From Octopus vulgaris (Eukaryota): a stretch of 64,000 bases of DNA. A model generated the notes under the pieces. It saw only the letters and a program-made list of their open reading frames with translations. It was not told the DNA's origin and made no database searches. Positions within the stretch are counted from its first letter, which is position 1. Every line of letters starts with the position of its first letter. Shown one piece after another: positions 23,725-63,756 of this stretch. Both the position numbers and the translations under genes were made by a program. The stretch covers positions 33,666,001-33,730,000 of the forward strand of contig OX597826.1 in assembly GCA_951406725.2 (NCBI GenBank). Direction: 5' to 3'.

Positions 23725-24055
23725 ATTACATAGTTCTACTAGCTACTATATCAGGTCTACTATTAAATTTAAACAGATATTCTGCACATCTAAACTCATT
23801 TAAATATGAAGAGCATAGCAAAACCACATCCCTAGACAACTATATATGCCATCTGATAAATAGAAAAGTACCATATATGATATCCTGGGCAATAATAGAT
23901 TCTGGTGTCCCATACCAAGGCCACCACTTCACATGTGAACTCTGCCTGAAAGAAACCCTCTAAATATTAATTCATAATTCAGTGCAATTACTCAATAAAC
24001 AAAACAAAGTATTTTCTACATGTAAGCATAAGTTCTTTTACACCTTTAGATTCTT
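23725..24055 (+). pseudogene. Decayed C-terminal half of a Naiad-type PLE GIY-YIG endonuclease (second family)
   Basis: RYSAHLNSFKY...TSLDNYICHL...ISWAII...CELCLKETL*...LLNKQNKVFSTCKH parallels RFNNHTLSF...TQLSNHIW...WKIL...CGLCDME...CLNTRTELFGSCPH. Confidence 0.7.
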
Positions 24056-24777
24056 CCATAGGTCCAAAAACAAGCAATATCAACACACATGACATTTGCC
24101 AATATGCATCCACAATTGTTACAATATACATGTTTTTTCTTCCTTCTTCTTCCCTATTAACATAAAATCCTTAGAAGCAACCTAGCTTTAATTCCTTAAA
24201 CTTTAATTTAAAAAAATTTTAATTTAAATTCAACTTTTAACTTTTAAATTTTAAATTTTAATTCTTTAATCTGTATCCTTTAGCCATATAATTCTAGTTT
24301 TATCCTATATATACCCCCTTAAGCTAAGCATCTATTTTTAGTTATCCATACTGACCACTGACCACTTAGTGTAGATTTCATCTATTCAATTAACAGATAT
24401 AAATACCTTCCTCCGTTACTTTATCAAAGCCTTAATGCCTGACCTCTCACCCCAAAGAATAATATTGGCATCTTATTTCTATCTTTATTCCTTTTCTTTT
24501 TCTTTTTTTTTCTTTTTTCTTTTTATTTGGAAGGGCATCCAGCCATAGAAACTTTGCCAAATCAGACTGGAGTTTGGTGCAGCCTTCCAGCTTGCCAGCC
24601 CTAGTCAAACCGTCCAACTCATGACAGCATGAACAATGGATGTTAAATGATGATGATGATGCTGATGATAATGATAATGATAAAGAAGATATTTCTTCCA
24701 TCTGGCTGCTTTTTTTTTTCCCCACAAAACGAGAAGTTACAATGCAGAACTGTTATTTTAATGAGTTGCATTCATTT

Positions 24778-24854
24778 ATCACCCAACGAGATATATCTGC
24801 ACCACCTGATGCCCCTGAACCAGTTGCTAGATGTGGTGAAACAATTGTTGTGAT
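24778..24854 (+). ncRNA. Degenerate HHR with long stem II
   Basis: atcac CCAACGA gatatatct...agatgtggt GAAA caattg TT gtgat; sister copy at 41936-42041. Confidence 0.55.
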
Positions 24855-25025
24855 TAATAATAAATTCCCTTATATTCCATCTTCTGTCTTTCTTATGCTA
24901 TATATATATATATATATATATATGTATTGATAAAACGGTAAGATAACAAAAGAAAGAAAGAGACCTCAATATTATGTAAATAGAGGAAATTTATCTATAC
25001 AATATGTTACATTACTCGGTAGTCA

Positions 25026-25088
25026 AGATAAAACTCTGAGTTTCAGATGCCGAAGTGGAAATCCACAACACCATCTCTTCGGTTATCT
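25026..25088 (-). ncRNA. HHR-like motif in the PLE pseudo-LTR
   Basis: agataa CCGAAGA gatg...catc t GAAA ctcagag TT ttatct; non-canonical CCGA core. Confidence 0.55.
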
Positions 25089-25283
25089 GGCTATTTGAAA
25101 ACGTTATGAAAAAATACCGTTAAAAATGAAGGGAAATTACTCTGTTATAACTCTGCTTTGCCTGCGTACTTATACATCGCTCGCATTTTTCGTCATAAAA
25201 ATTATATAAAAATACATAAAAAATATATAAAAATATATAAAAATATATAAAATCTTCTTGGGACATAACACAGAAAGCATGTT

Positions 25284-26374
25284 CTATCCGTTTTCTTTAG
25301 GGGACCAAAAACGTAACAGAAATTTAGTCACATGTGGGCATGATCCGAAAAGTTCTGTCCTTGTATTTAGACATGTGGTAGGGTCTAAGCTGCTTTTCCA
25401 GATAAGCCATCTCTCCATGTCGCATAAACCGCACCTTCCGCTGCCGTTAGTATAGGGCTTACATCTGGCCAAAATCTTCCATTGTATGTTATAATCGACA
25501 CCTTTATCTCTTAAAGACCAAATATGATTGGATAATTGTGTCGCTTTTCTTTGTTCCAGTGCCTAAAGCTCAAAGTGTGGTTATTGAACCTGGCCTTGAA
25601 ATTACCCTCTGTCAGGCCCACGTATTTCTTCGTCGAAACGGTGTCTTTAGTGGTTATAGAGTTTACGGTAGCCTCATATATGATGGTCTTGGACATGCAA
25701 GCTCCATTTAGCGGGCACAATTCTTTATTCCTGCATGAACAGCTGTTTTCTTCTTGTGTTTTTTGTATGTTATGATTGATTATGTTTTTAAAATTGGTAG
25801 TTGAACTAAAACTAATTTTTAAATTGTGTCTATTGAAGAGTTTCCTATAAGCATGGTTAACTGGAAAATGTCTATCTATCAGTGCTAGGAAATATTTACC
25901 TATATTGAAGGCCACCTCGGGTGAGTAAGGGGGCGTAAACCAGATGACCTTCCTATTTCTATTATTCCTTTTCTTTATTGTTGGGCTGGTGATAGGTGTA
26001 TATTTTATTTTTTCGCTAAAACCACTATCTTTTAAAGCTTTATTATAAACTGGGGCAACGCTATTGAAGATGTCCTCATTAGATGAGAGGCTAGAAATCC
26101 TCTTACTAATATTTTTAACTAAATTTTTGAATACTATAGGGGGATGGCATGAACCTACATTAATATAACTTAGTCTATCATTGGGCTTCCTATAAGGCTT
26201 ATAAATATTATTATTAAGATCTAAGGAAACGTCTAAGAAATTGACAACCGTCAGGTTAGTGTCTATAGTTATACTAAGTCCGAAGTGTTTCATTAACTGG
26301 ATAATATCCTTCCTAAAACGATCTTGTGCTGGTCCATTTGTATTAGCTGTTAAGGCGAGGGCATCATCTTTGTA
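25284..26374 (-). CDS. PLE reverse transcriptase (from YKDD) plus GIY-YIG endonuclease; one frameshift near 25546
   Basis: YKDDAL...VNFLDVSLDL...YKPYRKPN...SCHPP; linker CSCRNKELCPLNGAC (CxCx5C); IIY...YVG-LTE..FKARFNNH; one added base joins to KATQLSNHIW...CGLCDME...CLNTRTEL..SCPH. Confidence 0.88.
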
Positions 26375-26540
26375 GATTTTATATATTTTTATATATTTTT
26401 ATATATTTTTTATGTATTTTTATATAATTTTTATGACGAAAAATGCGAGCGATGTATAAGTACGCAGGCAAAGCAGAGTTATAACAGAGTAATTTCCCTT
26501 CATTTTTAACGGTATTTTTTCATAACGTTTTCAAATAGCC

Positions 26541-26603
26541 AGATAACCGAAGAGATGGTGTTGTGGATTTCCACTTCGGCATCTGAAACTCAGAGTTTTA
26601 TCT
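26541..26603 (+). ncRNA. HHR-like motif in the inverted pseudo-LTR copy
   Basis: Same sequence as 25026-25088 in the opposite orientation. Confidence 0.55.
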
Positions 26604-26672
26604 TGACTACCGAGTAATGTAACATATTGTATAGATATATATATATATGTAGATATATATACATACATACAT

Positions 26673-26713
<41 letters not shown>

Positions 26714-26831
26714 CATATGCATACACACAGACACACATACACACTCATACATATATATAAATATATATATATATACATATACACATACATGTATATACAT
26801 ATATATATATTTATAGATATAGATATATAGA

Positions 26832-29800
26832 TATAATTTCAACAATTGAGGGTAAAATTAATTAATTATTAATCAATTTCACCAAGTGTTCAGTATGCAA
26901 AGGGACCATTTAAGGCGAATTCAAATTATTACATTATATAAAAGGGCTTAGTAAAATAAATTACTTTGCCGCATACTGAACTCATTAGAAATAGCAGCTA
27001 AAAAACTTTTTTAAAACTATTTCTAATACTTAAAGACAACCTCTCTCATATAGTGCTTGCTCAACTCAACTCACGAAAGTTTGGGGGTAAATACATCAAA
27101 AAATCAAATGCAAAGGTTATTTGAGAACGTACGTTTCAAGATTAGTCAACACGACACTTCTATCATCAGCTCAGAAACTCCTTGGTTTGGATTTGAAAAC
27201 ACTGAAAGTGAGAGCATACCCTTTCGGCTTCTCATCGCTTTCGAAGATCTGCTCGTAACTAACAGTGCCAACAAACTCAAATATGCAAGCGAAGAATTTC
27301 TGTTCTCCCCTTTCCACCAGCGTGGGTTAAAATCAGCAAACACTATGCTTATTTCGGTAAAATCCGAAGCATTAATTAGAGGGAGATTAATTATAATTTC
27401 AACAATTGAGGGTAAAATTAATTAATTATTAATCAATTTCACCAAGTGTTCAGTATGCAAAGGGACCATTTAAGGCGAATTCAAATTATTACATTATATA
27501 AAAGGGCTTAGTAAAATAAATTACTTTGCCGCATACTGAACTCATTAGAAATAGCAGCTAAAAAACTTTTTAAAACTATTTCTAATACTTAAAGACAACC
27601 TCTCTCATATAGTGCTTGCTCAACTCAACTCACGAAAGTTTGGGGGTAAATACATCAAAAAATCAAATGCAAAGGTTATTTGAGAACGTACGTTTCAAGA
27701 TTAGTCAACACGACACTTCTATCATCAGCTCAGAAACTCCTTGGTTTGGATTTGAAAACACTGAAAGTGAGAGCATACCCTTTTGGCTTCTCATCGCTTT
27801 CGAAGATCTGCTCGTAACTAACAGTGCCAACAAACTCAAATATGCAAGCGAAGAATTTCTGTTCTCCCCTTTCCACCAGCGTGGGTTAAAATCAGCAAAC
27901 ACTATGCTTATTTCGGTAAAATCCGAAGCATTAATTAGAGGAGATTAATTATAATTTCAACAATTGAGGGTAAAATTAATTAATTATTAATCAATTTCAC
28001 CAAGTGTTCAGTATGCAAAGGGACCATTTAAGGCGAATTCAAATTATTACATTATATAAAAGGGCTTAGTAAAATAAATTACTTTGCCGCATACTGAACT
28101 CATTAGAAATAGCAGCTAAAAAACTTTTTAAAACTATTTCTAATACTTAAAGACAACCTCTCTCATATAGTGCTTGCTCAACTCAACTCACGAAAGTTTG
28201 GGGGTAAATACATCAAAATATCAAATGCAAAGGTTATTTGAGAACGTACGTTTCAAGATTAGTCAACACGACACTTCTATCATCAGCTCAGAAACTCCTT
28301 GGTTTGGATTTGAAAACACTGAAAGTGAGAGCATACCCTTTCGGCTTCTCATCGCTTTCGAAGATCTGCTCGTAACTAACAGTGCCAACAAACTCAAATA
28401 TGCAAGCGAAGAATTTCTGTTCTCCCCTTTCCACCAGCGTGGGTTAAAATCAGCAAACACTATGCTTATTTCGGTAAAATCCGAAGCATTAATTAGAGGG
28501 AGATTAATTATAATTTCAACAATTGAGGGTAAAATTAATTAATTATTAATCAATTTCACCAAGTGTTCAGTATGCAAAGGGACCATTTAAGGCGAATTCA
28601 AATTATTACATTATATAAAAGGGCTTAGTAAAATAAATTACTTTGCCGCATACTGAACTCATTAGAAATAGCAGCTAAAAAACTTTTTTAAAACTATTTC
28701 TAATACTTAAAGACAACCTCTCTCATATAGTGCTTGCTCAACTCAACTCACGAAAGTTTGGGGGTAAATACATCAAAAAATCAAATGCAAAGGTTATTTG
28801 AGAACGTACGTTTCAAGATTAGTCAACACGACACTTCTATCATCAGCTCAGAAACTCCTTGGTTTGGATTTGAAAACACTGAAAGTGAGAGCATACCCTT
28901 TTGGCTTCTCATCGCTTTCGAAGATCTGCTCGTAACTAACAGTGCCAACAAACTCAAATATGCAAGCGAAGAATTTCTGTTCTCCCCTTTCCACCAGCGT
29001 GGGTTAAAATCAGCAAACACTATGCTTATTTCGGTAAAATCCGAAGCATTAATTAGAGGGAGATTAATTATAATTTCAACAATTGAGGGTAAAATTAATT
29101 AATTATTAATCAATTTCACCAAGTGTTCAGTATGCAAAGGGACCATTTAAGGCGAATTCAAATTATTACATTATATAAAAGGGCTTAGTAAAATAAATTA
29201 CTTTGCCGCATACTGAACTCATTAGAAATAGCAGCTAAAAAACTTTTTTAAAACTATTTCTAATACTTAAAGACAACCTCTCTCATATAGTGCTTGCTCA
29301 ACTCAACTCACGAAAGTTTGGGGGTAAATACATCAAAATATCAAATGCAAAGGTTATTTGAGAACGTACGTTTCAAGATTAGTCAACACGACACTTCTAT
29401 CATCAGCTCAGAAACTCCTTGGTTTGGATTTGAAAACACTGAAAGTGAGAGCATACCCTTTCGGCTTCTCATCGCTTTCGAAGATCTGCTCGTAACTAAC
29501 AGTGCCAACAAACTCAAATATGCAAGCGAAGAATTTCTGTTCTCCCCTTTCCACCAGCGTGGGTTAAAATCAGCAAACACTATGCTTATTTCGGTAAAAT
29601 CCGAAGCATTAATTAGAGGGAGATTAATTATAATTTCAACAATTGAGGGTAAAATTAATTAATTATTAATCAATTTCACCAAGTGTTCAGTATGCAAAGG
29701 GACCATTTAAGGCGAATTCAAATTATTACATTATATAAAAGGGCTTAGTAAAATAAATTACTTTGCCGCATACTGAACTCATTAGAAATAGCAGCTAAAA

Positions 29801-32312
29801 AACTTTTTAAAACTATTTCTAATACTTAAAGACAACCTCTCTCATATAGTGCTTGCTCAACTCAACTCACGAAAGTTTGGGGGTAAATACATCAAAAAAT
29901 CAAATGCAAAGGTTATTTGAGAACGTACGTTTCAAGATTAGTCAACACGACACTTCTATCATCAGCTCAGAAACTCCTTGGTTTGGATTTGAAAACACTG
30001 AAAGTGAGAGCATACCCTTTTGGCTTCTCATCGCTTTCGAAGATCTGCTCGTAACTAACAGTGCCAACAAACTCAAATATGCAAGCGAAGAATTTCTGTT
30101 CTCCCCTTTCCACCAGCGTGGGTTAAAATCAGCAAACACTATGCTTATTTCGGTAAAATCCGAAGCATTAATTAGAGGGAGATTAATTATAATTTCAACA
30201 ATTGAGGGTAAAATTAATTAATTATTAATCAATTTCACCAAGTGTTCAGTATGCAAAGGGACCATTTAAGGCGAATTCAAATTATTACATTATATAAAAG
30301 GGCTTAGTAAAATAAATTACTTTGCCGCATACTGAACTCATTAGAAATAGCAGCTAAAAAACTTTTTTAAAACTATTTCTAATACTTAAAGACAACCTCT
30401 CTCATATAGTGCTTGCTCAACTCAACTCACGAAAGTTTGGGGGTAAATACATCAAAATATCAAATGCAAAGGTTATTTGAGAACGTACGTTTCAAGATTA
30501 GTCAACACGACACTTCTATCATCAGCTCAGAAACTCCTTGGTTTGGATTTGAAAACACTGAAAGTGAGAGCATACCCTTTCGGCTTCTCATCGCTTTCGA
30601 AGATCTGCTCGTAACTAACAGTGCCAACAAACTCAAATATGCAAGCGAAGAATTTCTGTTCTCCCCTTTCCACCAGCGTGGGTTAAAATCAGCAAACACT
30701 ATGCTTATTTCGGTAAAATCCGAAGCATTAATTAGAGGGAGATTAATTATAATTTCAACAATTGAGGGTAAAATTAATTAATTATTAATCAATTTCACCA
30801 AGTGTTCAGTATGCAAAGGGACCATTTAAGGCGAATTCAAATTATTACATTATATAAAAGGGCTTAGTAAAATAAATTACTTTGCCGCATACTGAACTCA
30901 TTAGAAATAGCAGCTAAAAAACTTTTTAAAACTATTTCTAATACTTAAAGACAACCTCTCTCATATAGTGCTTGCTCAACTCAACTCACGAAAGTTTGGG
31001 GGTAAATACATCAAAAAATCAAATGCAAAGGTTATTTGAGAACGTACGTTTCAAGATTAGTCAACACGACACTTCTATCATCAGCTCAGAAACTCCTTGG
31101 TTTGGATTTGAAAACACTGAAAGTGAGAGCATACCCTTTCGGCTTCTCATCGCTTTCGAAGATCTGCTCGTAACTAACAGTGCCAACAAACTCAAATATG
31201 CAAGCGAAGAATTTCTGTTCTCCCCTTTCCACCAGCGTGGGTTAAAATCAGCAAACACTATGCTTATTTCGGTAAAATCCGAAGCATTAATTAGAGGGAG
31301 ATTAATTATAATTTCAACAATTGAGGGTAAAATTAATTAATTATTAATCAATTTCACCAAGTGTTCAGTATGCAAAGGGACCATTTAAGGCGAATTCAAA
31401 TTATTACATTATATAAAAGGGCTTAGTAAAATAAATTACTTTGCCGCATACTGAACTCATTAGAAATAGCAGCTAAAAAACTTTTTTAAAACTATTTCTA
31501 ATACTTAAAGACAACCTCTCTCATATAGTGCTTGCTCAACTCAACTCACGAAAGTTTGGGGGTAAATACATCAAAAAATCAAATGCAAAGGTTATTTGAG
31601 AACGTACGTTTCAAGATTAGTCAACACGACACTTCTATCATCAGCTCAGAAACTCCTTGGTTTGGATTTGAAAACACTGAAAGTGAGAGCATACCCTTTC
31701 GGCTTCTCATCGCTTTCGAAGATCTGCTCGTAACTAACAGTGCCAACAAACTCAAATATGCAAGCGAAGAATTTCTGTTCTCCCCTTTCCACCAGCGTGG
31801 GTTAAAATCAGCAAACACTATGCTTATTTCGGTAAAATCCGAAGCATTAATTAGAGGGAGATTAATTATAATTTCAACAATTGAGGGTAAAATTAATTAA
31901 TTATTAATCAATTTCACCAAGTGTTCAGTATGCAAAGGGACCATTTAAGGCGAATTCAAATTATTACATTATATAAAAGGGCTTAGTAAAATAAATTACT
32001 TTGCCGCATACTGAACTCATTAGAAATAACAGCTAAAAAACTTTTTTAAAACTATTTCTAATACTTAAAGACAACCTCTCTCATATAGTGCTTGCTCAAC
32101 TCAACTCACGAAAGTTTGGGGGTAAATACATCAAAAAATCAAATGCAAAGGTTATTTGAGAACGTACGTTTCAAGATTAGTCAACACGACACTTCTATCA
32201 TCAGCTCAGAAACTCCTTGGTTTGGATTTGAAAACACTGAAAGTGAGAGCATACCCTTTCGGCTTCTCATCGCTTTCGAAGATCTGCTCGTAACTAACAG
32301 TGCCAACAAACT
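26832..32312 (-). repeat. Tandem array of ~9.8 near-identical 558-560-bp units, one HHR per unit (retrozyme-like)
   Basis: Anchor positions 27057, 27616, 28174, 28734, 29294, 29853, 30413, 30972, 31532, 32092; units differ only at a few positions. Confidence 0.95.
27122..27173 (-). ncRNA. Type I HHR in array unit 1 (repeated in every unit)
   Basis: tgag CTGATGA taga..gtc-gtgtt-gac..tctt GAAA cgtacg TT ctca; canonical core, palindromic AACGTACGTT stem III. Confidence 0.7.
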
Positions 32313-32313
32313 A

Positions 32314-32946
32314 TTTTTAGCTGCTATTTCTAATGAGTTCAGTATGCGGCAAAGTAATTTATTTTACTAAGCCCTTTTATATAATGTAATAATTTGAATT
32401 CGCCTTAAATGGTCCCTTTGCATACTGAACACTTGGTGAAATTGATTAATAATTAATTAATTTTACCCTCAATTGTTGAAATTATAATTAATCTCCCTCT
32501 AATTAATGCTTCGGATTTTACCGAAATAAGCATAGTGTTTGCTGATTTTAACCCACGCTGGTGGAAAGGGGAGAACAGAAATTCTTCGCTTGCATATTTG
32601 AGTTTGTTGGCACTGTTAGTTACGAGCAGATCTTCGAAAGCGATGAGAAGCCGAAAGGGTATGCTCTCACTTTCAGTGTTTTCAAATCCAAACCAAGGAG
32701 TTTCTGAGCTGATGATAGAAGTGTCGTGTTGACTAATCTTGAAACGTACGTTCTCAAATAACCTTTGCATTTGATTTTTTGATGTATTTACCCCCAAACT
32801 TTCGTGAGTTGAGTTGAGCAAGCACTATATGAGAGAGGTTGTCTTTAAGTATTAGAAATAGTTTTAAAAAAGTTTTTTAGCTGCTATTTCTAATGAGTTC
32901 AGTATGCGGCAAAGTAATTTATTTTACTAAGCCCTTTTATATAATG
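32314..32946 (+). repeat. Inverted ~1.13-unit segment of the 560-bp array (HHR at 32705-32756)
   Basis: Reverse complement of the unit; abrupt junction ...caacaaact-a-tttttagctgct... Confidence 0.95.
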
Positions 32947-33004
32947 ATATATAGATATATATATATAGATATATATACACATAAACACGCACACACACAC
33001 ACAA

Positions 33005-33043
<39 letters not shown>

Positions 33044-34147
33044 GTGTTCTTTGTTGATAAGCCTCAAAGTAGAATTGTTTCAAATCAATAATTGCTTATT
33101 TCAGCTGAGACATGAAAAGTTACCCTCAAGGACCAATGATAAAGGTAAAAAGAATTTAAATAAACAAAAGCAGTTTCTCATTTGATCAACTTAAGAAAAT
33201 TTTAAAACTCTTTTTACCTGTATATAAATAAAATAATAAAAGATGACTTCCTTAATTCTGACTTGTCCTTTTTATCTCCACCAAGGAAGGAGGTTATGTT
33301 TTGTTAGTGTTACTATACTATTATGTACACAAAAACACACAGACATTTGTGTGTGTGTGTGTGTTCCTTATGGATTCGAAAATTGGGTTGCTGATTTTGA
33401 GGTTAGAGCTATCAAAAGATTCCATAATCTTTCAGCTACCAAATAAAGGATGTTTTTGCACAACTCTTCTTTACTGCAAAAATAACCTCAAAAACGAGAT
33501 TGGGTTGCACAATTTTGAGGGCAACTCTGCCTGCACAATTTTTTCTATGTCTCAGATAGAGCATAATGAGAAAATGTTTAAAATACATAGAGTTTTAGCA
33601 AGAAATGAAACTTTGAAGATATACTGTCAACTTTATTAGTATTATTTAGTAGATAAACTTTTAATGTGAAGTATGTTTGTCTGTGTTTTGTTTAGTCCAG
33701 AGTTGCCTCTGATCTAGCAAACCCATCGCATACTTTTTTCTTCCTGAAATTCTGTAAATCTGTGTCTTTCTTTTGATGAAAGGATGTGTTTTAAGAGAAA
33801 TTTGGCTACTATTTGTAGTAGTTCAAGTTACCACAGACACATCTCTGTGTGTGTGTGTGTGTTTTGATGTAGTGAAAAATGTACTTTTTCTCAGAATATT
33901 TTGCACATTAATTTCGTAAGAAATCTAGATATCTTTCTTACTGCTAACCATTCAACTTCAAATTACAGTAGTTAATTGTTGGAAGTCAAGTAGACTGAGA
34001 TGTACATATAGTGTTATCGTATAGAATAGAAGTTCAATACGAAGTTTTAAACTCATTATCTTGTTATTAATCCATTACCTTAAATTTGAAGCCATTGAGT
34101 CTGTAAACATTATTTAATTGGGTTTAGTCTTTCGACTCATAAGTCTT

Positions 34148-34418
34148 TTAACTCCTAAGACACCTGGCAAAGTCAAAAAGTATGAATAAAAAAGTTTGGC
34201 AATCAATCGGTTGAACAGGCCAGATCTGGCCAAAATATTCAACCTGTTTTATGGTCAAACCAGCTAGATCTGACCCTTCACAACTACCCTACAATGTCAT
34301 TGAAAAAGCAATCACATCATCAGAATCTTGAAGCTGTGAGATAATGAATGATTAATTTTAAAAATGTGAATGAATAAGCATTATATTTGACAGAGTAATC
34401 TGAATGGTAAAGGGTTAA
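34148..34418. mobile_element. piggyBac-like MITE, degenerate
   Basis: Ends ttaactcc... and ...aatggtaaagggttaa (TTAA plus CCC/GGG termini); body matches 58453-58685 in reverse. Confidence 0.5.
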
Positions 34419-34536
34419 CAGGGATAGAAACTGAAGATTTATGAATTTTGTGAAATATTACAAAAAACAAAACCCCCAAACGTTCACTGTATGAAAGGCA
34501 TATATAGTCTTTCTCTCATAAAATGGCATGCCTTTA

Positions 34537-34668
34537 CTACAGTAGGCCTGCTATCAACGCCCTATTTAACACATTTGGTGGTTTATGCGCCCACATGCTT
34601 GCCTTGATAGCCCCATTTTCATTCTTCACTTCACTGAATACCGTAATAACAGCAACATCTGAAGAATT
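34537..34668 (-). CDS. Candidate terminal exon (NSSDVAVITVFSEVKNENGAIKASMWAHKPPNVLNRALIAGLL*)
   Basis: Long polypyrimidine tract plus AG, open frame with protein-like composition in unique sequence; no homolog recognised. Confidence 0.3.
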   Translation of the reverse strand, partial: NSSDVAVITVFSEVKNENGAIKASMWAHKPPNVLNRALIAGLL

Positions 34669-35290
34669 CTTAAGAGAAATAAAACAAAAAGAAGAAAACA
34701 CGAAGACAAATGGAAAAAGCAAGCACACACACAGACACTCGTATAAACACATATATCATATATATGTGTGTGTGTGTGTGTAGGTATGTGTGAGCACACG
34801 AAGTGTGCAAAGAATATGAGGAGAATTCCTCAAGTTAATAACTCTCAACGAGAAAACAAGTGAAACAATTAGCAAAGAATGAGACACATGCAGACAATGT
34901 GTTGATGTCTAAATTTTTTTTTTATTTGTGTGTTAGGTTCTGAAGAACTCCGTCTTTAAGTAGGCATGTATACTCACATATATCTATGGGTGGTTACATA
35001 CACACACACACACACATTCACATATATTTATATACAAATACACATATACATATGTCTATATGTGTGTGTATGTATAATTTGTTGTTTTTGTTTGACTCCT
35101 TTTGACTATGATCAAGCCCTGCTAAATTTTTAATTACTCTTCAAGTATCTTAAGTGAATAAAATTTCATTTAGGCAAGTGAAAATGCACTTCGTGGAGCC
35201 CATGTATGTCTAGTTGCCAAATATATGCACATATATATATATATGTATATGTGTGTGTATATATATATCATATATATACATATATATATG

Positions 35291-35324
<34 letters not shown>

Positions 35325-35356
35325 CATGTATATACATATATATATATACATATATA

Positions 35357-35397
<41 letters not shown>

Positions 35398-36223
35398 TTA
35401 CATATACATGCATATATACATACATATATATATACATATATAAATACATACACGCACACACACATATATATATGAGGTGAGAGAGATTCATATACATACG
35501 TACATATACACAAATGTATACACACAAACACAGACACATGTGCAAAAATGTATGCATACACACACACACACATACGTGTGTAAGTGTATATGTTTATATA
35601 TGTGTGTGTGTATATATGTATGTACATATGTATGTATGCACATATATATGAAGTAGTAAATGAATGTACATATATATATGTATATATATATATAAGTAAG
35701 GGTGGTTTGTTAATTGATTAGACAGAAAAGGCGTGGTTATTCCACCGTCTAAAATATGACTAGAATGTGTGTGTGTGCATGTGATATATAGACTTATATG
35801 AATAAGTATTCCTCCTGCATAGGTGTATCTGTATATGCATGTATGTGGATCTAGGTATGTTTCATGAAGCAATATGATTGATTAGCAATACAACTACTAA
35901 AAAAAGTATGTAACTAACTCATACGCACACACATATATGTATGCATGCAGATACATATATACTTATACACACAGAATACGCACATATGTATATGAATGTG
36001 TAACATAAGTAGAATAAATGCCTGTGTGTAAGTATGCAAGTGTAACTATGTATGTATATAAATGTGTCATACATATATATGAAACCACATGTATATATAT
36101 ACACACACTTATATGTATATGAATGTATATATGTATGTATGTGTATATATATGTATATATATGTATATATGTATATATATATGTATATAAATACGTATAT
36201 ATATATATGAATATATATGTATA

Positions 36224-63310: not shown

Positions 63311-63328
63311 AATAATAATAATAATAAT

Positions 63329-63756
63329 CCGAACGTGGTCGATGCCAGTGCTGCCCCGACTGGCTTCTGTGTCGGTGGCACATAAAAAGCACTGTCCGAA
63401 CGTGGCCGATGCCAGCGCTGCCTCGACTGGCTCCAGTGCCGGTGGCACATAAAAAGCATCATCCAAACGTGGCCGTTGCCAGCGCCGCTTTGGCTGGCTT
63501 CCGTGCTGGTGGCACGTAAAAAGCTCCAACCGATCGTGGCCGATGCCGGACCCCCCTGGCACCTGTGCAGGTGGCACGTAAAAAGCACCCACTACACTTG
63601 CAGAGTGGTTGGCATTAGGAAGGGCATCTAGCTGTAGAAACTCTGCCAGATCAGACTGGAGCCTGGTGCAGCCCCTGGCTTCCCAGACCCCGGTCGAACC
63701 GTCCAACCCATGCTAGCACGGAAAACGGATGTTAAACGATGATGATGATGATGATG
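63329..63756 (+). mobile_element. RTE-type 3' UTR with four 67-bp tandem units and (GAT)n tail
   Basis: Units start at 63329, 63396, 63463 and 63530 (ccgaacgtggccgatgccag...ggtggcacgtaaaaagca); tail shared with 50300-50550. Confidence 0.75.

Follow-up and report, generated by a model that had tools for sequence, protein, structure and literature searches.

Non-long-terminal-repeat (non-LTR) retrozymes are animal repeats for which hammerhead cleavage and RNA circles have been shown in coral, mussel and axolotl, and Penelope-like elements (PLEs) were regarded as strong candidates for their mobilisation (PMC7229834). For vertebrates, it has been argued that they derive from PLEs as non-autonomous sequences (10.64898/2026.07.22.740005). 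The class itself is already known, animal non-LTR retrozymes having been proposed as non-autonomous PLE derivatives; the mobilisation by PLEs of retrozymes that form RNA circles has so far been proposed on indirect grounds. Metazoan type I hammerheads are usually weak alone and work as dimers (PMC4209133). In vitro, the tail of a PLE was found to lie between two internal start sites of the reverse transcriptase (RT), and both target strands were cut and extended by the Anolis PLE (PMC11167929). Hammerhead motifs are described as lacking in the N-terminal endonuclease-positive (EN+) PLEs (PMC8557442). The present analysis concerns a stretch of 64,000 nucleotides of the Octopus vulgaris genome (contig OX597826.1, positions 33,666,001 to 33,730,000; called the window below), in which a tandem array of a 560-bp unit with a hammerhead motif occupies positions 26832 to 32946. 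This array is one insertion of a dispersed hammerhead repeat, and it was likely made in trans by the enzyme of a PLE, probably one of the Hydra clade, priming twice on one RNA. Literature searches, which lacked most subscription papers and supplements, gave no paper on a cephalopod retrozyme.

A sequence-only reading of the window had proposed a young retrozyme-like element and had named a search for dispersed arrays as a check. When the octopus genome itself (2.8 Gb, 227 contigs) was searched with the unit, 1630 candidates were obtained; the 40 that were scored proved to be 40 separate loci on at least 17 contigs, and the full units there were mostly 98-100% identical. Positions within the unit are numbered from U1, the first base 3' of the predicted hammerhead cut on the hammerhead strand. 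Exact patterns found 864 long-end junctions (U294 followed by (TA)n), 710 short-end junctions with A/T runs and 1841 hammerhead 3' halves genome-wide, each against 0 for the reversed control, and these counts are lower bounds. In 77 loci, all 11 positions of the hammerhead core were invariant, with the free position 7 varying in 9; this is support and not a formal test, since 58% of all unit sites are invariant and the loci are related. A dispersed family is upheld by the 864 end junctions and the conserved core, and the 560-bp unit is a young, abundant, dispersed, non-coding non-LTR retrozyme family with insertion ends of the PLE type. A local satellite with a hammerhead-like motif that arose by chance is hardly credible. 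It would fit an Rfam scan of positions 24000-36000 at E<=1, which returned microsatellite noise only and no hammerhead match, as well as the local duplication through which part of the window array grew; it is refuted by at least 864 dispersed insertions with fixed ends, by the invariant core and by the lack of any descriptor match elsewhere in the 64 kb.

The family falls into subfamilies of 545-560 bp that are up to 8-10% apart, some of them with a GUA triplet. Loci L169 (G000:C1:33098500-33106500) and L170 (G000:C1:71596300-71606200) hold a subfamily of 545-546 bp with the GUA triplet and a 17-nt deletion, in which U100-330 is almost unchanged from the 560-bp unit and the remainder is 8-10% different. 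A minimal insertion of the family was seen at L214:3017-3101 and also at L269, where (TA)n holds a piece of about 60-85 bp from the tail region and nothing else of the unit. The search for a parent PLE, by three protein searches and in 134 PLE loci, yielded only insertions of the unit itself, among them this piece, which had at first resembled a PLE end.

The array in the window consists of 9.8 direct and 1.13 inverted units at a spacing of 558-560 bp, and its units are 99.3-100% identical to one another. The count of about 9.8 direct and 1.1 inverted near-identical units made earlier from the letters thus agrees with the unit starts, which for the direct units lie at 26832, 27392, 27950, 28509, 29069, 29629, 30188, 30748, 31307 and 31867. 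The long arm (26832..32312), whose hammerhead RNA sense is the minus strand, comprises nine full units of 558-560 bp and a further 446 bp, with its outer end at U294 and its inner end at U409. The inverted short arm (32314..32946, plus strand) is 633 bp or 1.13 units long and runs from U122 across one cut site to the fixed end U194, after which (TA)n follows. The arms meet head to head at 32312..32314, where U409 and U122 are separated by one filler base. The array lies between two (TA)n/(CA)n microsatellites, one at 26630..26831, which holds the long end of the array together with the short end of a neighbouring PLE, and one at 32947..33045, at the short end of the array. The unit is non-coding, with a GC content of about 0.34 and a longest stop-to-stop frame of 123 amino acids. 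Tandem Repeats Finder was blind to the array at its period limit of 500.

A generic descriptor of type I hammerheads, applied to both strands of the whole 64 kb, gave 11 matches, all inside the array. One hammerhead per unit had been claimed, each on the minus strand; the first part holds, and the second is true of ten of the 11 only, as the motif of the inverted copy is on the plus strand. This motif spans 32705..32756, with the core CUGAUGA at 32709-32715, a GUU triplet and the predicted cut at 32752/32753; it has a stem I of 4 bp, a stem II that opens with a U.U mismatch, the GAAA element and a palindromic stem III of 2 bp. The first of the ten minus-strand hammerheads lies at 27122..27173, and the minus-strand cores start at 27169, 27728, 28286, 28846, 29406, 29965, 30525, 31084, 31644 and 32204.

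The ends of the insertions were mapped in 100 loci: the window, the 39 loci with the best scores and, from contig C1, the first 60 matches to the long end. Two head-to-head arms, with their 3' ends facing outward into (TA)n, were present in 75 of the 100. Among the 73 inverted loci not cut by the edge of the locus, 68 had one long end (U284-296) and one short end (U186-208); four combined a long end with another position and one had two long ends. Because this sample favours long ends, 20 loci chosen by the hammerhead alone were examined as well, and all 11 inverted ones had the long and the short end (one repeats a locus of the set of 100). Pairs of two short ends were not seen by eye among the first 100 of the 710 short ends. 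The longer arm may be either one. Arrays with permuted ends had been named as something to look for; the ends are not freely permuted, the outer ones being fixed at two sites (68/73), in the manner of Penelope elements. The segment of about 98 nt between both fixed sites (U197-U294; 26832..26929 in the window, minus strand), here called the tail, occurs at one outer end only. Inherited variants in U241-300 affect 2 of 60 sites, a figure that is partly biased, as 60 loci were chosen by their match to that end. Each of the two end sites is a TATA motif in a part of the predicted fold that is mostly unpaired. At the inner ends, 71 junctions were classified, four rows with hairpin overlap having been dropped: an overlap of at least two bases is seen in 37, a blunt joint or an overlap of a single base in 12, and filler in 22.

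The same arrangement of ends, which the sequence-only reading had not noted, was observed in the coding Hydra-clade PLE next to the array. Insertions of its family end 43 and 110 nt past their own hammerhead-like site, leaving a tail of 67 nt, and 16 of 19 scorable rows (one locus twice) have the long and the short end, all in (TA)n. The end pattern is thus common to the 560-bp unit and the Hydra PLE, with a stagger of 98 nt in the former vs 67 nt in the latter. On the strength of these insertion ends, retroposition of the unit is very probably PLE-dependent.

In the mechanism proposed here, the RT-endonuclease of a PLE, probably of the Hydra clade, would write the unit into the genome in trans. 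The enzyme would cut both strands of the (TA)n target, and each 3' end would pair with an accessible UAUA in the RNA (U186-191 and U291-294) and prime a complementary DNA (cDNA). The two cDNAs would grow inward and then be joined, often at short microhomologies. The use of two primers on one RNA is considered likely. Classic twin priming of the L1 type, in which the first cDNA halts at the second primer, was tried as an explanation and rejected, since it fits few loci: the inner end of the long arm falls at U185-212 in about 6 of 75. A weaker part of the proposal, with chances that are about even, is that the template was an RNA ring one unit in length, which hammerhead cleavage (probably in the dimeric state) and ligation had formed and which was copied over more than a single lap. 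Long arrays, that of the window among them, would have grown further by tandem duplication of DNA.

Several observations bear on the nature of the template. In the C1 sample, units differed by 0.44% within the same arm, by 0.76% between opposite arms and by 6.2% between loci; in the set of 40 loci, 25 variant calls were fixed on both arms vs 1 that was arm-specific. The low divergence between arms and the variants fixed on both indicate that a single unit variant gave rise to the two arms. Within the window array, all 11 pieces on both arms have the same three family variants, and 12 of 73 loci have, between them, 16 locus-private variants that every piece of both arms carries. The predicted cut site was crossed 217 times in 174 arms (72 times in 105 C1 arms), and the comparison of these crossings with nine stops near the cut indicates that the template was mostly ligated or uncut. 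Variants specific to a lap and common to both arms were absent in 8549 informative site-laps, while 50 occurred on one arm only; the lack of shared lap-specific variants speaks for one unit copied repeatedly rather than for a mixed multimer.

The phase of the junctions was also analysed, after L118, L138 and L154 had been dropped. Arms that stop within 10 nt of the same unit position (in-phase junctions) make up 17 of 45 in the C1 sample, where permutation gives a mean of 2.6 (p 5e-5). Fifteen of the 17 are on the same lap, one is a lap ahead (+1, L126) and one a lap behind (-1, L121). The excess is absent in the set of long arrays (2/27), and the junction of the window array is itself out of phase. 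In-phase junctions and identical arms would follow if a single primer started one cDNA on the RNA and this cDNA folded back, copied itself and was linked, via the next TATA microhomology, to the second end of the target. The shorter arm in each of the 17 in-phase cases stops at whichever fixed site comes first from the junction, and several junctions lie at short palindromes of the unit sequence, as such folding back would have it. Against this stand the 28 of 45 C1 junctions that are out of phase and three features that it does not predict, namely that either arm can be the longer, that two long ends were paired in 1 of 73 loci and that no two short ends were paired in 100 short ends; moreover, two RT start sites were shown biochemically for a PLE (PMC11167929). 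Folding back is accordingly rated as improbable. A more specific version of the two-primer proposal is that each insertion came from a single 560-nt RNA ring, on which a pair of PLE enzymes primed at two UAUA loops 98 nt apart, one for each (TA)n strand, and rolled round the ring; in-phase junctions would be the traces left where one polymerase had reached the other. This version is offered tentatively and is on balance doubtful; if true, it would constitute genomic evidence for rolling-circle target-primed reverse transcription and for the origin of the inverted arm and the tail of PLEs.

The ring has a serious competitor in a linear, mostly uncleaved multimeric read-through RNA, from whose shared 5' end both cDNAs would run off, the hammerhead acting elsewhere or with the help of protein. 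Such a template has a substantial chance of being the correct one, if a lower one than even. All 17 in-phase junctions, including L126 and L121, fit run-off at a common 5' end, and the Anolis PLE mainly used unprocessed RNA as its substrate in vitro (PMC11167929); the predicted weakness of the hammerhead monomer fold and the mixed units on both arms at L054 and L063 are likewise in its favour. From a within-array divergence of 0.3-0.4%, halved, 13-17 shared lap-specific variants were estimated for a multimer from donors as mixed as present arrays, vs the 0 seen in the 8549 site-laps; young donors could be more uniform. The 16 locus-private variants fixed on both arms would further require a bottleneck of one unit or unsampled subfamilies. 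The template may have been a ring or a uniform linear multimer, and folding back of the cDNA is a third route that fits less well.

A number of results weigh against PLE-driven, doubly primed copying of a ring as proposed here. With respect to the ends, the TATA at U74-78 and the ATAT at U402 look similarly accessible and yet are unused as outer ends, and the RT start site of the Anolis PLE had no homology to the DNA that was cut (PMC11167929), in contrast to the UAUA pairing suggested for the octopus. With respect to the template, cleavage was not needed for PLE insertion in vitro (PMC11167929), and the nine arms that stop within U556-U6 exceed the 3.5 expected (p 0.009), so that some templates may have been cut linear RNA. 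A nearest-neighbour test gave 28 of 62 loci in which the own opposite arm was strictly the closest, 15 with a tie and 19 in which another locus was closer. At L054 and L063, variants are present in part of the units on either arm, a distribution not expected from a strict one-unit template; the two such variants at L054 suggest a dimeric template or gene conversion. With respect to the RNA, 17 of 53 inherited variants in 119 loci break a predicted pair, and the lower variability of paired sites (63/302 vs 45/162 for unpaired sites) is not significant (p 0.11). The hammerhead is predicted to be weak, given its GUU triplet, its 4-bp stem I and the unstable monomer fold, and only 1 of 9 predicted Xenopus retrozymes was reported to be cleaved (10.64898/2026.07.22.740005). 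Lastly, no PLE terminal repeat resembling the unit was found in 134 loci representing about ten Hydra-type families, a search confined to that clade. As no parent PLE was found, the enzyme partner is deduced from the insertion pattern alone.

The predicted RNA structure was examined further. The minimum-energy fold of the hammerhead monomer is not a hammerhead (z +1.09); forcing the hammerhead gives -2.1 kcal/mol vs -7.9 for the free fold. Caution had been attached early on to the GUU triplet, the 4-bp stem I and the U-U pair, and the predicted monomer hammerhead is unfavourable by about 6 kcal/mol. The palindromic stem III, proposed to allow dimeric cleavage, is predicted to pair between two copies at -13.0 kcal/mol. 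A gained pair at the base of stem II was considered and rejected, as the changes there are from U.U to A.A. Folded as a ring, the sense strand reaches -152 kcal/mol (z -6.3 vs 30 shuffles) and the antisense strand -125. Across the 119 loci, 36 of the 53 inherited variants keep their predicted pairing, including 10 of 10 in three local stems with one double change. Two additional hairpins had been noticed in each unit, and both are present in the first one. Hairpin U145-238 (26888..26981, minus strand, stems 26888-26898 / 26971-26981) has the short-end site in its predicted unpaired interior; its pairing is kept by all four inherited variants, one via a change on both sides (24 loci). In hairpin U99-142 (26984..27027, minus strand, stems 26984-26994 / 27017-27027), pairing is kept by 5/5 inherited variants in the lower 12-bp stem and by 2/6 in the upper homopolymer stem.

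The length of the window array calls for a separate explanation. Two private substitutions, at U461 and U24, alternate through units 2-7 (27392..30747), so that a block of two units is repeated three times. Errors of the RT on a ring would not recur lap after lap, which indicates duplication at the DNA level after insertion; most likely the dimer block grew in the DNA, with an effect of the assembly as the alternative. Other long arrays show similar periodic variants, and unit variants of this kind were seen in the long arrays L054, L046 and L031. Insertions in the C1 sample have a median length of 722 bp, and 17 of 58 are two units long or longer. The window array is unusually long, and its length is not a pure product of rolling-circle copying. 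The suggestion that the concatemer came from rolling-circle reverse transcription needs to be divided: retroposition from an RNA template is very probable, while the length is in part due to later duplication, as the threefold dimer block and the C1 median indicate.

Next to the array lies a 5'-truncated PLE of the Hydra clade (24925..26640, minus strand), which covers the RT from its DD motif onward and the endonuclease, is broken in frame near 25550 and has an inverted arm of 267 bp (26374-26640); its long end is near 24925 and its short end near 26640. The criteria for the Hydra clade were taken from PMC8557442, and the assignment was made by motifs, size and target and not by a tree. The family is young, with many copies of 99% identity and intact open frames of 717 amino acids, to which no family was assigned by Pfam; its unit is 2.59 kb, its target is (TA)n, and the motifs RWK, DKT, CxCx5C and CxH are present in the full-length relative L103. 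The neighbouring PLE carries a variant hammerhead-like motif with a CCGAAGA core and a GUU triplet at 25082 (minus strand) and 26547 (plus strand). No similarity of the unit to this PLE at the DNA level better than E 0.18 was found outside the window locus (blastn, word 7, 39 loci), and array and PLE are best read as separate insertions into one microsatellite.

It had also been considered that the unit might be simply the pseudo-LTR of a coding PLE elsewhere, the arrays then being truncation products of an unsampled element. In favour of this are the PLE-type arrangement of the ends, the presence of a PLE 190 bp from the array in the window and the resemblance of Xenopus retrozymes to PLE pseudo-LTRs (10.64898/2026.07.22.740005). 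With a Hydra-type protein query, however, no PLE-like open reading frame (ORF) was found joined to any array in 100 loci; the multi-unit arms are perfectly head-to-tail and lack any ORF between the hammerheads, the terminal repeat of the neighbouring PLE has no relation to the unit, and subfamilies of 545-560 bp that are 8-10% apart spread as units. This origin is therefore thought very unlikely, and a non-coding repeat served in trans is preferred.

Other PLE-related sequences were encountered as well. Hydra elements are described as generally smaller than 3 kb and of few families (PMC8557442); loci L249-L268 hold about ten Hydra-type families with long open frames of up to 1091 amino acids, and the PLE loci L251 and L260-L262 have canonical hammerheads with a GUA triplet and a long stem II. 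At L102 (709 and 7400), an inverted pair of another type I hammerhead (GUA) flanks a PLE and is probably another hammerhead-bearing element. An old, degraded remnant resembling a PLE endonuclease (30% identity) lies on the plus strand of the window at 23775-24071.

With regard to expression, contigs of the unit occur in seven runs guessed to be RNA, alongside contigs of the neighbouring PLE and of the repeat at 34212-34430; assembled contigs from these runs cannot show strand, ends, level or circles. The repeat at 34212-34430 of the window is a different one of high copy number that is deeply covered in all four runs compared for coverage. A promoter of the small nuclear RNA (snRNA) type, AATTAA-N27-TCAGT, was absent from the sense strand of the unit, and the antisense strand has only spacings of N24 and N28. 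The best promoter matrix scores in the unit (-6.4 sense, -0.4 antisense) are within those of shuffles (95th percentile 1.1), by a matrix that is weak, its U2-only version having failed to recognise U1 sites. In U1/U2 snRNA genes (L284-L307), AATTAA-N27-TCAGT was seen at about -91 to -54 in 7 of 8 examined, a candidate proximal sequence element, and the U2 copies fall into several different upstream types. Elsewhere in the window, a GC-rich tandem repeat of 67 bp is present in 3.3 copies at 63327-63547, with a similar stretch near 24525-24683.

The value of the 560-bp family is that of a test system for how PLE enzymes copy such RNAs. Hundreds of young insertions record the reaction in their ends, junction phase and shared variants, and intact ORFs of young Hydra PLEs are present in the same genome. 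Given a 560-nt RNA with candidate priming sites mapped at two positions, (TA)n as the target and a candidate enzyme of 709 amino acids, the identity of the enzyme, the form of the template and the origin of the inverted arm become directly testable in vitro.

Compared with the animal non-LTR retrozymes (PMC7229834), the octopus family is alike in being non-coding and head-to-tail, with a type I hammerhead per unit, a GC content of about 34% and no ORF, and in its predicted stable ring fold and short palindromic stem III; the U-U mismatch at the base of helix II is shared with HHR_Amex2 of the axolotl. It differs in length, being 560 bp vs 150-450 there, and in its GUU (or GUA) triplet. Cleavage and circles were shown for those retrozymes, whereas the octopus unit is known from its sequence and predicted folds. 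Fixed, two-ended, inverted insertions into (TA)n are not described in the available part of that source, and target-site duplications are unreadable inside (TA)n. The vertebrate retrozymes (10.64898/2026.07.22.740005) agree with the octopus unit in class, in the proposed partner, in length (within 51-972 bp) and in their dispersed monomers, dimers and multimers. The evidence given for them is co-occurrence and similarity to pseudo-LTRs, with local amplification suggested and, as far as that source could be seen, no mollusc among 35 species; in the octopus, the link comes from the insertion ends, it is the unit that moves, and a similar pseudo-LTR was not found among the Hydra-type loci compared.

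Among PLEs, those of the Hydra clade (PMC8557442) share with the octopus unit the (TA)n target, an inverted 5'-truncated arm, a one-ended tail and hammerheads, which they have in the terminal repeat. Unlike them, the unit is non-coding, without sequence similarity to the sampled families, and its tail is about 98 nt long vs 67 nt in the neighbour and 30-40 bp as published. The Chlamys non-autonomous elements such as MRC1 (PMC8557442) are likewise non-coding, multicopy, head-to-tail and PLE-dependent, and differ in being green algal and in their general 3' similarity to the autonomous partner. In the Poseidon PLE of Anolis (PMC11167929), as in the octopus unit, the tail lies between two RT start sites 3' of the hammerhead cut, both target strands are cut and extended, and the target is AT-rich; its start is at an AC-rich stem-loop without homology to the target, while the ends of the octopus unit lie at UAUA motifs that match (TA)n.

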